Below the pieces are notes generated by a model. That model worked only from the letters and a program-made list of their open reading frames with translations. It made no database searches and was not told where the DNA came from. A DNA stretch of 64,000 bases. Source: a virus (taxonomy: Duplodnaviria > Caudoviricetes). The position numbers were made by a program, and so were the translations under genes. Below, piece after piece: positions 3,531-43,286 of the stretch. The DNA is taken from positions 1,260-65,259 of IMG/VR virus record IMGVR_UViG_3300021364_000018, one strand, 5' to 3'. The number at the start of each line of letters is the position of its first letter. Position 1 is the first letter of the stretch.

Positions 3531-5000
3531 TTACATTTCGATAATCAGTTTGATATCTTCAATTTGGTCAGCAGCCCTTGTCACTGCACCTCTATTTTCA
3601 ACATAGAGAATTTGACCTGAGAATCTAGTCATCTCTGGATGAGCAGTAGAAACTCCGTCTGAATTAACATCAGCAACTTTAGTACCATCGACATAAACTT
3701 CATCTGAGTTTGCAAAGTCGACATACTCACCACCTGAGTTAACTACAGGTAATGTTTTGATAACATTATTTGTTTTAGATACAACTCTATGTTTAGCAGT
3801 AGTTGCTGATTCTGAGTTTGAATCCATAATAATGTCATCTACTGAGATACTAGCAGCGTTGTCAACTGTTATCTGACTTGTTGCTGTTAGTGATGTTTCA
3901 CCTGAAATAGTTGAATCAGATGATTGAACTGGATTCTTAATAAGACCAATTCTTCTAAAATCGTTATCAGTTGGGAAATCACCTGCACCTTCGCCGAACT
4001 CTAAACGAGAGTTGACGATAACATAGTTACCACCCATTTCTTCGATTGGGTTAGCACCATGTCCGTTGATTGGTGAAATGATTGGTTTGATTGAACCACC
4101 AGAACCGCCTGAGATTCCTGAAATTGTAGAATCTAAAGTTGGGAAAGATGCTCTTTTATAACCTGAACCATATGATGATGAATCTTTAAATGTGACTGAA
4201 CTTATTGAACCACCTGAGAAGTTGATAGTTGCGACAGCACCTGAACCATCTCCTTCTACAGCGACATCAACTGAGTCACCTGAGTCTAAAGTATAACCTG
4301 AACCTGCTTGTTCTACGATGTAATGATAGATTGCACCATCAACTGAAGCATTTTCTACATCCCATTGTGAACTTCCATCATCATCAGCAGTTGAACCGAA
4401 TTCGCCGTTTGTTCCTGAACCAGCGACTCCTGATTTTGCACCTAATGTTTTAACTGGAATAAAGTCGTTAGTCACGAACTTAATAACATCTGATGCTGAA
4501 ACTGTATACATGAACTTCCAAAGATAACCGTCACCTGTTGCTTCAGGATTTACAGTATCTACAGAAGTAGGTTTGACTGTTGAATTTACAGGACTTCCTG
4601 ATGATGTGCCTGTTCTAAGACATTTATACACTTTATATTCATCAGTGATTACATAACCTCTTCCATCGAAGAAGTTTGATACACCTGTGACATTAGTAGG
4701 ATTAGCAGAAGAATAATTATCTCTCCACTCATCATACTGTGTATTGCCTGTTGAGTCCCAATCATATCTGACTAGACCATGTGTAATATCAGAAGTTGCT
4801 ACTTTTTTAAGAGCAATCATATCTTCATATGCTTGTATCTCTTCTGATTCTGAATTAGCTGGTGCAGGAGGACTTGTATCGTCTGCCCAACTATGACTTC
4901 TGCCAATGAAGATATAGTTTGAAGAGTTTGCTTCACCAAAATCTTCAATGAACTGCCTTGCATTGTGCGTTCTAAATTTTTCTGTTATTATTGCTGCCAT
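3531..5000 (-). CDS. gp8: Baseplate wedge subunit gp8
   Basis: MAAIIT.KFR..NA start, YKVYKCL, DGYLWKFMY, NDFRRIGL and the C-terminal YVENR..TRAADQIEDIKLIIE motif. Confidence 0.9.
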   Translation of the reverse strand: MAAIITEKFRTHNARQFIEDFGEANSSNYIFIGRSHSWADDTSPPAPANSESEEIQAYEDMIALKKVATSDITHGLVRYDWDSTGNTQYDEWRDNYSSANPTNVTGVSNFFDGRGYVITDEYKVYKCLRTGTSSGSPVNSTVKPTSVDTVNPEATGDGYLWKFMYTVSASDVIKFVTNDFIPVKTLGAKSGVAGSGTNGEFGSTADDDGSSQWDVENASVDGAIYHYIVEQAGSGYTLDSGDSVDVAVEGDGSGAVATINFSGGSISSVTFKDSSSYGSGYKRASFPTLDSTISGISGGSGGSIKPIISPINGHGANPIEEMGGNYVIVNSRLEFGEGAGDFPTDNDFRRIGLIKNPVQSSDSTISGETSLTATSQITVDNAASISVDDIIMDSNSESATTAKHRVVSKTNNVIKTLPVVNSGGEYVDFANSDEVYVDGTKVADVNSDGVSTAHPEMTRFSGQILYVENRGAVTRAADQIEDIKLIIEM

Positions 5001-39471: not shown

Positions 39472-40125
39472 TTATGAAGGTGGTAAAGGTTTATCGTCTC
39501 CATCTGTTGAAGTTGCAGGTTTAAATCCTGGAATATATTTTGTTTTATCTCGTATACAATCGTAAGGGACATGAATCTCTTGGTCTTCTGGAATATATAA
39601 ATGATTAATCATAGAACGATTACAGGTGTCAATGGCATCATAGACTGTTTCACATATTGCTTCGCCACCTAGATTAAATGATGTATTAAATAATATTGGT
39701 ACACCTGTTCTCTCATAAAAACCTTTAATGAGATTATAATAATTTTTATTCTGTTCTTCGGTCACTGTTTGAATTCGACAAGTGTTGTCGGCATGAACAA
39801 GTGTAGGAATATCTTTGAGTGCCTTAGGTTTACACTGAATGGCAAACGACATCCAAGGCGATTCAGGTAATTGCAACATGTCAAAGTATTCTTCTGCATG
39901 TTCTAACATAACAGTGCAAGCAAATGGTCGATAGGACTCTCTCTTCTTTACATCATTGACAATTGCTTTGGCATTGTGATGTCTAGGGTCAAATAATATA
40001 GAACGATTACCTAGAGCACGAGGACCCCATTCAGAATGATTCTGAAAGATTGCGACAATCTGTTCGTTGTCAATAATTTCATCAAGAATTGAATCTTGGT
40101 CTCTATGAATATTAGTTGTTAGCAT
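39472..40125 (-). CDS. Carbamoyltransferase C-terminal domain (NodU/CmcH family)
   Basis: EWGPRALGNRSIL.DP, KKRE.YRPFA, H.DNTCRIQTV, NTSFNLGGE. Confidence 0.92.
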   Translation of the reverse strand: MLTTNIHRDQDSILDEIIDNEQIVAIFQNHSEWGPRALGNRSILFDPRHHNAKAIVNDVKKRESYRPFACTVMLEHAEEYFDMLQLPESPWMSFAIQCKPKALKDIPTLVHADNTCRIQTVTEEQNKNYYNLIKGFYERTGVPILFNTSFNLGGEAICETVYDAIDTCNRSMINHLYIPEDQEIHVPYDCIRDKTKYIPGFKPATSTDGDDKPLPPS

Positions 40126-41287
40126 GATTTCTCCAATAATCTAAAGCGACACCAACCGCAGTGCCACCGTCATGTGGGATAGGGTCAACAAAAAATTGCA
40201 CATCAGGAAATGCCTGTAGATACTTATAGTTGTTGGTGCAGTTCAATGAATACCCACCTGAGAGAACTACATTCTTACAATCAGGTACCATATCAAGTGC
40301 CTTCTGTATGATTTCTTTACTATGTTCAAGAGCAGCAAGTTCAAGTCTTTGTGCTTCTGTATGTTTAGTAAAGACTTTCGGATGGGCGCCACCATATGAT
40401 GCCATACCCATAACTTTACCTGACGCTCTTCCCATTTTATCACACCCTAATGCATAAGACATTTGTGAGAAGTTCATACCCATTGAAGGCATTGATGTCA
40501 GGACGACTGGCACACCATCTCTCTCATAGACTTCATCTGTATAACACATAAAGGCATCTTCACCAAATGCATCTAAATCAAAATGCATTGAGTGAGAGAA
40601 TCTCTGATTTGATAATCTTTTCCAAATAGGTGTGACTTGTTTGTCTTTGTAATGCCAAATGGTTTCAATTTCTTGATACATAGGGAACTCATCAAAGTAA
40701 GTTTGTGCTCCCCCACCGTCCCAGGCGATAACAATTGCCTCATCGTAAGGTGATAAATGCGACCCACAGACAGCATGATAATAATGATGGTGACGAATAT
40801 CAAAATGATAATTCTCAACTTCTACTTGTCTTGCAATTGCCTGATTAATGTGGTCGTCTTCGTCAACAAAGGTATGATTATCATCAAACACACTATCACC
40901 AAAGGCCTTTCTTATCTCTTCGATTCGTTTAAGAGTAAGTTGTGCTGATGAAAACTCCTGAGTTAATTCTTTTTGTAAGAGTCTATCTTTGTAAACTCTA
41001 TCTTTAAACTTGACTTGAAAATCTCTACGGTCAAACGAGGCTAACGCCAGAGCGCTAGGTTTGTGTAACTGTTTGTGGTCTATTGCCAGTAAGGCAAAAT
41101 TTTGATAGGAGTCAAGACCTTCGTTCTCATGGGTATCAAACCCAGCATCGTCAATCGGTGAGAAATGTTTTTGTCTACGGCATCGTTCTTCTTCGTAAAC
41201 ATTTAAAACTTCACCTGATTTCCTATCAATACATGCGACTGATGTATCGTGTGATTGGTTCACGCCCAATATAATATTGTCATTCAT
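40112..41287 (-). CDS. Carbamoyltransferase N-terminal (Kae1-like) domain
   Basis: ILG...SHD, EEER..R.K, HH..HA, DGGG, GKVMGMASYG, SGG..LNC..N, D.G.A.G. Confidence 0.9.
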   Translation of the reverse strand: MNDNIILGVNQSHDTSVACIDRKSGEVLNVYEEERCRRQKHFSPIDDAGFDTHENEGLDSYQNFALLAIDHKQLHKPSALALASFDRRDFQVKFKDRVYKDRLLQKELTQEFSSAQLTLKRIEEIRKAFGDSVFDDNHTFVDEDDHINQAIARQVEVENYHFDIRHHHYYHAVCGSHLSPYDEAIVIAWDGGGAQTYFDEFPMYQEIETIWHYKDKQVTPIWKRLSNQRFSHSMHFDLDAFGEDAFMCYTDEVYERDGVPVVLTSMPSMGMNFSQMSYALGCDKMGRASGKVMGMASYGGAHPKVFTKHTEAQRLELAALEHSKEIIQKALDMVPDCKNVVLSGGYSLNCTNNYKYLQAFPDVQFFVDPIPHDGGTAVGVALDYWRNHANN

Positions 41288-42421: not shown

Positions 42422-42548
42422 TTTTGGTTTCCTTCTTCGTTTTTCCCAAAAAAAATTTTAATAAGGGTACCGGTCAGAAAAACAACCCGATGCCTTAACA
42501 TCAGTGGACCAAGGGCAACACAATCGCTGGGACTGTTCCTAAGCGATT

Positions 42549-42728
42549 CTACTGCACCCGAGTGACTTCGACTACACACTCCTTCGATTCTAACTCTGAG
42601 GCGACTTCCATCGCTTCTCTCATAGGTATCGGAGTCGTATTATAGACCTGCCATACTCTGTCACCACTAATGTGTTTGATATTCTTATGGAAGTACCTCA
42701 CAGTGGCATTCATGTTGTCTACTGTCAT
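42549..42728 (-). CDS. 59-aa hypothetical protein
   Basis: Manual translation MTVDNMNATVRYFHKNIKHISGDRVWQVYNTTPIPMREAMEVASELESKECVVEVTRVQ; SD AAGGA. Confidence 0.5.
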   Translation of the reverse strand: MTVDNMNATVRYFHKNIKHISGDRVWQVYNTTPIPMREAMEVASELESKECVVEVTRVQ

Positions 42729-42742
42729 ATGTATCCTTATAC

Positions 42743-42864
42743 TATATGCTGTAGTGGGCGGGGCAACCTCCTCCCCGCCATGGATGTTCGGACATCAACC
42801 TCTGGGACTTTCACATATGCATGATATATTACAGGTAACTCCCAGATGAACCCTACAACATATA
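42743..42864 (-). ncRNA. Candidate ~120-nt four-way-junction RNA
   Basis: Closing stem TATATGTTGTAG/CTACAGCATATA; arms TCTGGGA/TCCCAGA, GATGT/ACATC, GGCGGGG/CCCCGCC; promoter TAGACA-18-TATAAT at 42868-42897. Confidence 0.7.
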
Positions 42865-42894
42865 ACCATTATACTATGGTAATGCAGTCTATGT

Positions 42895-43134
42895 CTAGTG
42901 GAAAACTCGCTCAACACCTCCAATTACTATGAAGTCTATGGCTATCTCACCCTCTATGACTATGCCCTCTCTATGGAAGACACTCGCACACATGAGTGAC
43001 CAGCATTCATTGATGTTTTCCTTAACCATTGCCAGTTGCATCTCCTTACTATTAAGGGGTATGTCTACTGGTATATTGGATGCGATATGCACCCCTCGTA
43101 ATCCGTTAATCATGTTATTTCCTTTTCTCATCAT
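42895..43134 (-). CDS. Hypothetical early protein
   Basis: ORF directly behind tandem sigma70 promoters. Confidence 0.6.
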   Translation of the reverse strand: MMRKGNNMINGLRGVHIASNIPVDIPLNSKEMQLAMVKENINECWSLMCASVFHREGIVIEGEIAIDFIVIGGVERVFH

Positions 43135-43138
43135 GGTA

Positions 43139-43286
43139 ATGGTAACAAAAAATGGAGGTCACTGTCAACCCCTCTATGGCGCTACGAATCACCTGCATAA
43201 CCCTCCATGGTATCATATATGGGGGTCATATGTCAAATCCTCAGAGGGTCTCAAAAGGTTGACATCTCTCGAATTATACATATACT
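43139..43286. promoter_or_regulatory. Cluster of divergent sigma70-type promoters
   Basis: (-) TTGACA-18-TACCAT at 43139-68 and 43207-36; (+) TTGACA-16-TATACT at 43259-86. Confidence 0.65.

Follow-up and report, generated by a model that had tools for sequence, protein, structure and literature searches.

The question raised by this locus is what a GC-rich interval of about 120 nucleotides, placed directly behind a promoter in AT-rich viral DNA, encodes, and whether its most conspicuous part, a loop that spells out a perfect Shine-Dalgarno (SD) sequence, explains what it does. An earlier note, made from the letters of the DNA, read the interval as a promoter-driven cloverleaf RNA with a 12-bp closing stem and three arms, the third of them carrying AGGAGGU in its loop, and proposed an anti-SD decoy or a CsrA/RsmA sponge. 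Comparison with relatives found elsewhere leads to a different picture. The interval at positions 42743-42866 (minus strand) of the window, the whole stretch of 64,000 nucleotides analysed, is very probably a member of a structured RNA family conserved among uncultured marine T4-like myoviruses.

The window makes up most of a viral contig of 65 kb, whose completeness is estimated at 35%. Genes of the window point to T4-like myoviruses with distant cyanophage kin (38.7% identity to Synechococcus phage proteins); carbamoyltransferase, DUF7220 and DUF6552 are also encoded. A sigma-70-like early promoter lies directly 5' of the element on the minus strand (42868..42897), as described earlier, with TAGACA at 42897-42892, an 18-nt spacer, and TATAAT at 42873-42868. 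It agrees with the consensus at 11 of 12 positions, and the first three bases of its -35 hexamer are the TAG stop codon of an upstream 79-aa gene. In the window lineage, the RNA begins a few bases after this promoter. The element is GC-rich for its genome (0.49 for the RNA part vs 0.357 for the window), and the minimum free energy (MFE) fold of 42875-42743 reaches -45.3 kcal/mol, with a z score of -2.64 that only 1 of 200 shuffles equalled. All three arms of the earlier description are present in that fold: UCUGGGA/UCCCAGA (designated P2, with its 5' strand at 42840..42846 and its 3' strand at 42801..42807), GAUGU-CCGA-ACAUC (hairpin P3, which together with a GGUU junction occupies 42783..42800), and GGCGGGG-AGGAGGUUG-CCCCGCC (hairpin P4, 42757..42779, with its loop at 42772-42764). 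So is the closing stem, P1, in which 42864-42853 pairs with CUACAGCAUAUA at 42743..42754 and one pair is G-U. The next ORF (42549-42728, minus strand), a gene of unknown function encoding 59 amino acids, has an SD of its own, AAGGA at 42738-42734, six bases 5' of the ATG, so that ribosome-binding site (RBS) and ORF together span 42549..42738. Beyond it lie a second conserved RNA block, AACAGUCC ... UUGGUCCACUGAUGUUAAGGCAUCGGG, at 42486..42537, common to a subset of relatives described below as the long form, and 3' of that block a conserved A/U run at 42448-42459, with the next gene after it; these features too are on the minus strand.

No RNA family in Rfam accounts for the element. Neither the window nor any of nine related loci matched Rfam 15 at the gathering score; in relaxed searches, E values up to 10 brought no match that overlaps the element, nor did E values up to 5 at six loci. 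The earlier note saw no tRNA D/T-loop motifs, and ARAGORN called no tRNA genes in the window or in 17 viral-contig loci (L013-L029).

With pattern scans and a covariance model, more than 60 distinct homologs came to light in uncultured T4-like phages of marine origin. An exact 19-mer spanning P3 occurred in 17 viral contigs, every one a true homolog. When one base of the P3 pattern was left free, 107 metagenome stretches matched, which with earlier loci brought the set to 127 rows (83 distinct contexts); some 15 of these contexts are chance matches in GC-rich coding DNA. The scan of cellular genome contigs returned five matches, four of them by chance in coding DNA and one real; the real one is on a contig of a metagenome-assembled genome and may be binned phage. 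When the P4 loop rather than P3 served as the anchor, the scan found 21 real distinct contexts, with P3 identical in 20 of them. The exception, L198, has a different P3 stem, fully compensated, around the same CCGA loop, and the second motif copies of L103 and L151 also depart slightly from the usual P3. A degenerate pattern of P3 plus the loop gave 40 matches, 35 of which were tRNA T-arms or chance, and added one new member. Searches of isolate phage genomes by blastn, with the region and with the short-form motif, found no match. All contexts examined are T4-like, with gp43-type DNA polymerase (47% identity to cyanophage polymerases), UvsX-like recombinase and DnaB-like helicase.

The covariance model was seeded with 37 short-form members, the compact class described below, and the window was not in the seed; on the collected loci it gave 85 and 62 matches. 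Scored with a model thus independent of it, the window returns 38 bits (E 4.5e-7) at the element and no other match in its 64 kb. It is the weakest true member of the family because of its P4 loop: stem S1 of the pseudoknot, P2, the GGUU junction with the CCGA hairpin P3, and the P4 stem are all present, and the UGAAAA of the family's P4 loop is absent.

The fold conserved across the family is an H-type pseudoknot followed by P3 and P4, not a cloverleaf. Read from 5' to 3', the core opens with S1, which zero to five nucleotides separate from the 5' strand of P2. The P2 loop begins with the partner of S1 and holds, further on, an A-rich strand that ends in RAAG. After the 3' half of P2 come an A that may be absent, GGUU, P3 (GAUG-N-CCGAA-CAUC), C plus two bases, and P4, with six to eight GC-rich pairs and a loop bearing UGAAAA. 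It is the pairing of the S1 5' flank into the P2 loop that makes, with P2, the H-type pseudoknot. In the window, UUGUAGG at 42852..42858 pairs in this way with CCUGUAA at 42829..42835, which lies within the P2 loop and is followed by an inserted AU hairpin specific to the long form and then by the conserved GAAAG.

Covariation supports this architecture. In an alignment of 48 distinct rows, itself fitted to the covariance model, 90% of paired cells hold a pair, vs 72.8% after shuffling and only 38-52% in controls with the alignment slid. Double changes occur in 13 of 18 pairs, and none of 500 shuffles matched the alignment on any measure. All seven P2 pairs covary, each altered on both sides, as do all six P4 pairs, for which 100% of cells are paired. 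P3 does not vary within the 48 rows; since P3 served as a search anchor, that lack of variation is in part an artefact. S1 changes register from one sublineage to another, and fixed-column scoring was therefore dropped in favor of a per-sequence search with shuffles. This search found 24 distinct compensated helices in the same topological place (Fisher combined p 1.3e-9 vs shuffles of the 5' flank, the helices not all being independent), among them UAGGUC/GACCUA, UAGAGGU/ACCUCUA, CACAGU/ACUGUG, CGAC/GUCG, CGUC/GACG and GGGCG/UGCCC. The covarying helices and the pseudoknot show that selection has acted on RNA pairing, and not on DNA identity alone. On this point the earlier reading, that the interval encodes a structured RNA, is supported.

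The nearest relative, L012, on the same contig as L028, was found through a search with the 59-aa protein and is 79% identical to the window over 2.9 kb. Its promoter and RNA are nearly identical to those of the window apart from three places. In P2, UCUGGGA/UCCCAGA becomes UCUAGGA/UCCUAGA (G-C to A-U, seen in L012 and L028); in P4, one C-G pair becomes A-U; and the P4 loop reads AAUGAAAAC where the window has AGGAGGUUG. Two compensatory changes within nearly identical 120 nt support both hairpins. The third difference replaces seven of the nine loop positions in an element otherwise almost unchanged. Across the family, UGAAAA is found within the P4 loop in 62 of 63 distinct copies, always as NUGAAAA (61 with AUG, one with CUG), and the sole exception is the window. 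The P3 loop, for its part, is CCGA in nearly all copies seen.

The AGGAGGU loop that drew attention to this locus is thus really there, in P4 of the window, and is found in 1 of 63 distinct copies. The comparison of homologs, which confirmed P2 and P4 through strong covariation, at the same time showed the loop not to be conserved, an outcome the earlier note had itself listed as contrary to its proposal. The mechanisms it proposed rest on that loop and for this reason are not supported: with 62 of 63 copies carrying NUGAAAA, a function common to the family cannot depend on pairing with the 3' end of 16S rRNA. Sponge RNAs for CsrA/RsmA display multiple GGA motifs in hairpin loops. The window copy has one GGA loop and the family has none, so the sponge proposal is not supported either.

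Much the same applies to the cloverleaf. The 12-bp closing stem is present in the fold of the window copy, but among homologs it occurs only in the window, L028 and L172, where it never varies and so offers no covariation. With its 5' strand (42864-42853) it overlaps that of S1 (42858-42852), and in the remaining long-form copies a local hairpin follows P4 in place of the closing-stem strand. Restricted to one lineage and in competition with S1, the closing stem makes the cloverleaf a lineage-specific alternative fold rather than the architecture of the family.

Two forms of the element can be told apart, and the window belongs to the long form. Here all 21 aligned copies have a -10-like hexamer (TATAAT, TACCAT or TATACT) in one and the same column, in agreement with the earlier reading of the promoter as early-type. 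Long-form copies further have the hairpin inserted in the P2 loop and, downstream, the second block (42537-42486 in the window) and the A/U run. Of the 26 that have an ORF downstream, 20 place another 150-340 nt of conserved, partly covarying RNA between P4 and that ORF. In the window lineage, the two conserved RNA parts, the 5' domain and the 3' block, are separated by the 59-aa gene. The short form measures about 90 nt and is squeezed between a stop codon and the next RBS; read from the alignment, its copies have no recognizable promoter. The start codon follows 13-37 nt past P4 in 37 of 42 short-form copies and 28 nt past it in the window, where the RBS of the 59-aa ORF starts 19 nt past P4. 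An alternative pairing able to mask the RBS and conserved in the family was not found.

Neighboring genes differ widely. In every one of the 68 copies with a downstream ORF, motif and ORF share a strand; with the upstream ORF this is so in 62 of 71. Upstream genes belong to at least 12 unrelated families, and downstream genes to at least 24 families among the 68; ten downstream proteins scanned against Pfam comprised one cold-shock domain protein, one DUF932 protein and eight without a family. Members of the same upstream family are followed by different downstream genes, homology ending at the 3' edge of P4, and the variable stems of the motif track the upstream gene family. No protein family was found for the 59-aa product, which shares 92% identity with its L012 counterpart, most changes in the second half of the gene being synonymous; in L098, the motif is followed by a 65-aa homolog of it. 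Four phage records searched whole (161, 137, 91 and 60 kb; 33-91% complete) have one copy each, from which it follows that the element is not a dispersed repeat. L103 and L151 have two copies each, flanking a gene for a cold-shock-domain protein.

A hint of expression comes from public RNA libraries. A run search with a long-form relative returned 24 runs, 19 of them recorded as RNA, with partial shares only. In four of four runs examined, from three studies, a contig covers the conserved 5' domain with 95-100% likeness; being assembled, these contigs show presence only and may include DNA carry-over. Their ends coincide with boundaries of sequence conservation and hence carry no information on transcript ends, and the parts of the stretch that they leave uncovered are not evidence.

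What does the element do? Covarying stems, a pseudoknot with an A-rich strand, and invariant loops are typical of RNAs that make specific contacts or are catalytic, and their persistence across dozens of phage lineages and many metagenomes implies strong selection for a specific molecular contact. The reading we tentatively favor is that of a cis-acting leader or intercistronic module that controls the gene downstream. Such a module would fold compactly around its pseudoknot, and would do so at the 5' end of the next gene's message or close to it; in the window, that gene is the 59-aa ORF. Its invariant face, made up of the junction, P3 and the P4 loop, would be recognized by a conserved partner (a protein, the ribosome or a small ligand), and recognition would set translation initiation, the stability of the 5' end of the downstream gene, or both. 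The AGGAGGUUG loop of the window would then be a recent local replacement of the conserved loop, one that might either disable contact with the partner or substitute direct pairing with the 16S 3' end, while the 12-bp closing stem would be a lineage-specific alternative pairing in competition with the pseudoknot. We lean towards the cis reading because of the closeness of the element to the next RBS in the short form and in the window, and because of its position, in the long form, right at the 5' end of the transcript that the promoter drives. Against it stand the unrelated downstream genes, which count in particular against a metabolite switch tied to one pathway, and the negative outcome for a conserved pairing that masks the RBS. 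Two further observations suit other explanations as well: the exchange of the downstream gene exactly at the P4 3' edge, with stems that track the upstream gene, fits a 3'-end or boundary element equally, and the extra 150-340 nt of RNA in most long-form copies makes the motif resemble the 5' domain of a discrete noncoding RNA.

That last resemblance is the core of the strongest alternative, a discrete, stable small RNA acting in trans on a host or phage target, in which pseudoknot, P3 and P4 would be the functional body and the long form the 5' domain of an RNA of 240-300 nt. We consider it possible, if on the whole unlikely. The promoter kept in every one of the 21 long-form copies, the long stretch of conserved, partly covarying RNA that most of these place before the next ORF, the single copy per genome, the coverage in all four RNA-library runs examined, and loop and junction sequences as invariant as a recognition surface would be speak for it. 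It fits poorly with the short-form copies, which are wedged between stop codon and RBS with no promoter to be recognized, with the U-tract that follows P4 in a minority of lineages only, and with the protein gene inserted between the two RNA domains in the window.

A bolder claim, that the family is a new RNA fold class specific to marine T4-like phages, either a ribozyme or a sensor of a ligand or factor that gates early expression, with the window as a loop-swap variant bearing a ribosome-pairing loop, strikes us as rather unlikely. Its catalytic half can be weighed separately. Small self-cleaving ribozymes typically have the anatomy seen here, and a phage origin as well: about 90 nt, a pseudoknot, covarying stems, invariant nucleotides, and an intercistronic site. 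Cleavage of the early or intercistronic transcript, by the element as a ribozyme or at it as a dedicated processing signal, would leave a structured 5' end on the downstream message; this is by analogy conceivable and, in our estimate, improbable. No known model matches at the relaxed thresholds (E up to 10 in the window region, up to 5 at six loci), no sign of a cleavage site was seen, and RNA-library contigs cross the motif, though contigs cannot show ends; cleavage in the long form, moreover, would strip only a few leader bases.

The pattern of gene exchange might reflect a function at the level of DNA, namely a conserved boundary or linker at which homologous recombination exchanges downstream modules, comparable to the cassettes of T4-type phages known as promoter-early stem-loops (PeSLs; PMC2839356, PMC4122927). 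One upstream family adjoins varied downstream genes with the break at the P4 3' edge, the paired copies of L103 and L151 bracket a cold-shock gene, and the window copy is in a variable region behind an early promoter; PeSLs, in the accessible text of PMC4122927, are likewise units of promoter and stem-loop, located at indels of hyperplastic regions. We nevertheless hold this explanation to be quite improbable. Covariation and the pseudoknot point to selection on RNA pairing, the stem-loops of PeSLs are described in the same text as simple, PeSLs form series whereas each of the four records searched whole has one copy, and gene swapping may be a result of the conservation of the element rather than its function.

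What remains of the original proposal is a role confined to this copy, in which the AGGAGGU loop would pair with the 16S anti-SD and trap or pre-load the 30S subunit, or, in a variant, serve as a CsrA-type sponge; a perfect 7-nt SD on a stable 7-bp GC stem, 40 nt 5' of the real start codon, and a loop replacement at seven of nine positions that looks non-random speak for it, yet with the loop in one of 63 distinct copies, a single GGA loop instead of many, and all eight other viral contigs that exactly match the 17-mer of the hairpin top belonging to GC-rich phages unrelated to the element, we think it very improbable.

Four other candidates were tried and rejected. A leader peptide starting at the loop AUG would predict ATGA stop/start overlaps, which occur in 10 of 61 copies vs 8 of 61 in the control frame. 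A general terminator role for P4 does not hold, as a U-tract, read from the alignments, directly follows the stem in a minority of lineages only and never in the long form. A recoding stimulator, that is, a pseudoknot placed after a stop codon, was set aside by inspection rather than by formal test, since indels in the family do not keep to multiples of three and since a promoter precedes the window copy. No Rfam RNase P model matches; short words that we take to resemble RNase P RNA do occur in the element.

T4-like phages are among the most abundant viruses of the ocean, and to our knowledge almost nothing is known of RNA-level control in their uncultured lineages. Identifying the partner of the element would expose a control point of early infection common to many marine phages, and the known repertoire of natural RNA structures would gain a new pseudoknot fold. 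The family is of solid interest to RNA biologists, while the claim of an SD-presenting decoy is not supported. A lesson of wider use is that the most striking feature of a single copy can be the least conserved one.

Among known systems, several invite comparison. T4 species 1 and 2 RNAs (rnaC and rnaD) are also noncoding RNAs of a T4-type phage, about 120-140 nt long and of unknown function. They are located in a tRNA cluster, whereas no tRNAs occur at L013-L029 or in the window, and the covariance model found nothing in their annotated interval, the best score over 6 kb being at most 12.3 bits and elsewhere. The leader of T4 gene 32 is an H-type pseudoknot that acts as a translational operator, 5' of an A/U-rich stretch and the RBS. 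Compared by description, the element shares with it the H-type pseudoknot and this placement at the head of a message of a T4-type phage, and differs in that its downstream genes are small and diverse and do not encode a single-strand-binding protein, and in that it has two extra conserved hairpins. The SAM-II, SAM-V and preQ1-II riboswitches are alike in having a compact pseudoknot with an A-rich third strand just 5' of the RBS, and covarying stems around invariant unpaired nucleotides; the element has no Rfam match, however, and its downstream genes share no pathway. Pistol, hatchet, twister-sister and HDV-like ribozymes resemble it in size, pseudoknotting, phage and marine origin and intergenic position, but none of their models matches the element, and its order of helices (S1, P2, S1', P2', two hairpins) presumably does not fit their topologies.

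The PeSLs, in the accessible text of PMC4122927, combine a simple stem-loop with an early promoter and occur in series within a genome. Both they and the element, as far as that text goes, belong to T4-like phages, join a sigma-70-like early promoter to an RNA or DNA secondary structure, and lie in variable regions among small unknown ORFs where neighboring genes are swapped. The element has the promoter adjoining a stem-loop and lacks the series of copies per genome; it differs from PeSLs as described there in having a pseudoknot and two hairpins, invariant loops, covariation and a single copy, and it also has short-form copies without a promoter.

The core sequence strings of the element do not occur in the paper texts searched, and a full-text search for structured RNA motifs in marine phages returned one relevant work, PMC10690425, which in 2023 catalogued 8,495 candidate structured RNAs from IMG/VR. 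In its accessible portions, that catalogue mentions the pseudoknot of the T4 gene 32 mRNA leader and describes its entries as covarying intergenic motifs, many of them within 25 nt of a start codon. It thus draws on the same source collection and treats, as far as those portions show, the same kind of object, and its anonymous DNAVirus_N entries carry no assigned function there. The motif may already be listed anonymously among them. It is apparently a new and unnamed family within a known general kind, the orphan structured RNA motifs of phages.

Two conserved features flank the motif in its long-form copies. The first is an ORF of 79 amino acids upstream of the motif promoter (window 42895-43134, minus strand), homologs of which occur upstream of 23 long-form copies and share the pattern NGLxGxHIA...KEMQLAM...NECW. 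It is a genuine, conserved small gene; its product had no family match in Pfam or PHROG. The second is a conserved RNA block that long-form relatives (the loci L019, L022, and L073 among others) carry 3' of the motif; it reads AACAGUCC ... UUGGUCCAC ... UUAAGGCAUCGGG and lies at 42486-42537 on the minus strand of the window. In the long-form relatives this block is accompanied by a conserved AGCGUCUUAGAA element, which the window lacks. RNAalifold suggests that the pseudoknot linker of the motif pairs weakly, over a long range, with the end of the second block, and three compensatory cases accompany this pairing.

A carbamoyltransferase in the window appears split into two minus-strand ORFs, an N-terminal one of 391 residues (40112-41287) and a C-terminal one of 217 residues (39472-40125), which together span 39472-41287 and share a 14-nt overlap. 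Two related loci, L017 and L022, carry ORFs of 392-395 residues downstream of the motif, and their N-terminal sequence, compared by eye, resembles that of the 391-residue ORF. If these ORFs are also N-terminal halves, the division into two ORFs may be a conserved trait and not the product of a frameshift.

Some relatives show other arrangements. Two loci carry paired motif copies about 350 nt apart (L103, positions 820-1245, and L151, positions 4470-4914), with a cold-shock-domain gene between the copies and, in the second copy of each pair, variants of the otherwise near-invariant hairpin P3. In two other loci, L095 and L096, an ORF of 69 amino acids directly follows the motif, ahead of the usual downstream gene, and its sole ATG is the AUG of the loop of hairpin P4. 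It may be a genuine gene with its start codon in the P4 loop, or it may have arisen by chance.

The only true motif copy among cellular-genome contigs is in L034, a contig from a metagenome-assembled genome that bears the label Candidatus Neomarinimicrobiota. Because the motif there is surrounded by small ORFs, as is typical of phage DNA, L034 may be of phage origin and have ended up in that genome through binning.

Upstream of the 79-residue gene, two further promoters of the sigma-70-like kind (TTGACA-18-TACCAT, with GGGG ahead of each) lie at window positions 43139-43236 on the minus strand, and a divergent plus-strand promoter (TTGACA-16-TATACT) faces the gene for a DUF6552 protein; together they constitute a cluster of early promoters. 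The window holds two occurrences of the pattern GACA-N17-19-TAYMATGG, versus 0.16 expected. One of the early promoters is overlapped by a weak, sub-threshold match to an Rfam family, the DUF2815 RNA motif (43111-43172, minus strand; 19.1 bits and E = 2.3, with the gathering score at 41.2), a resemblance most likely due to chance.
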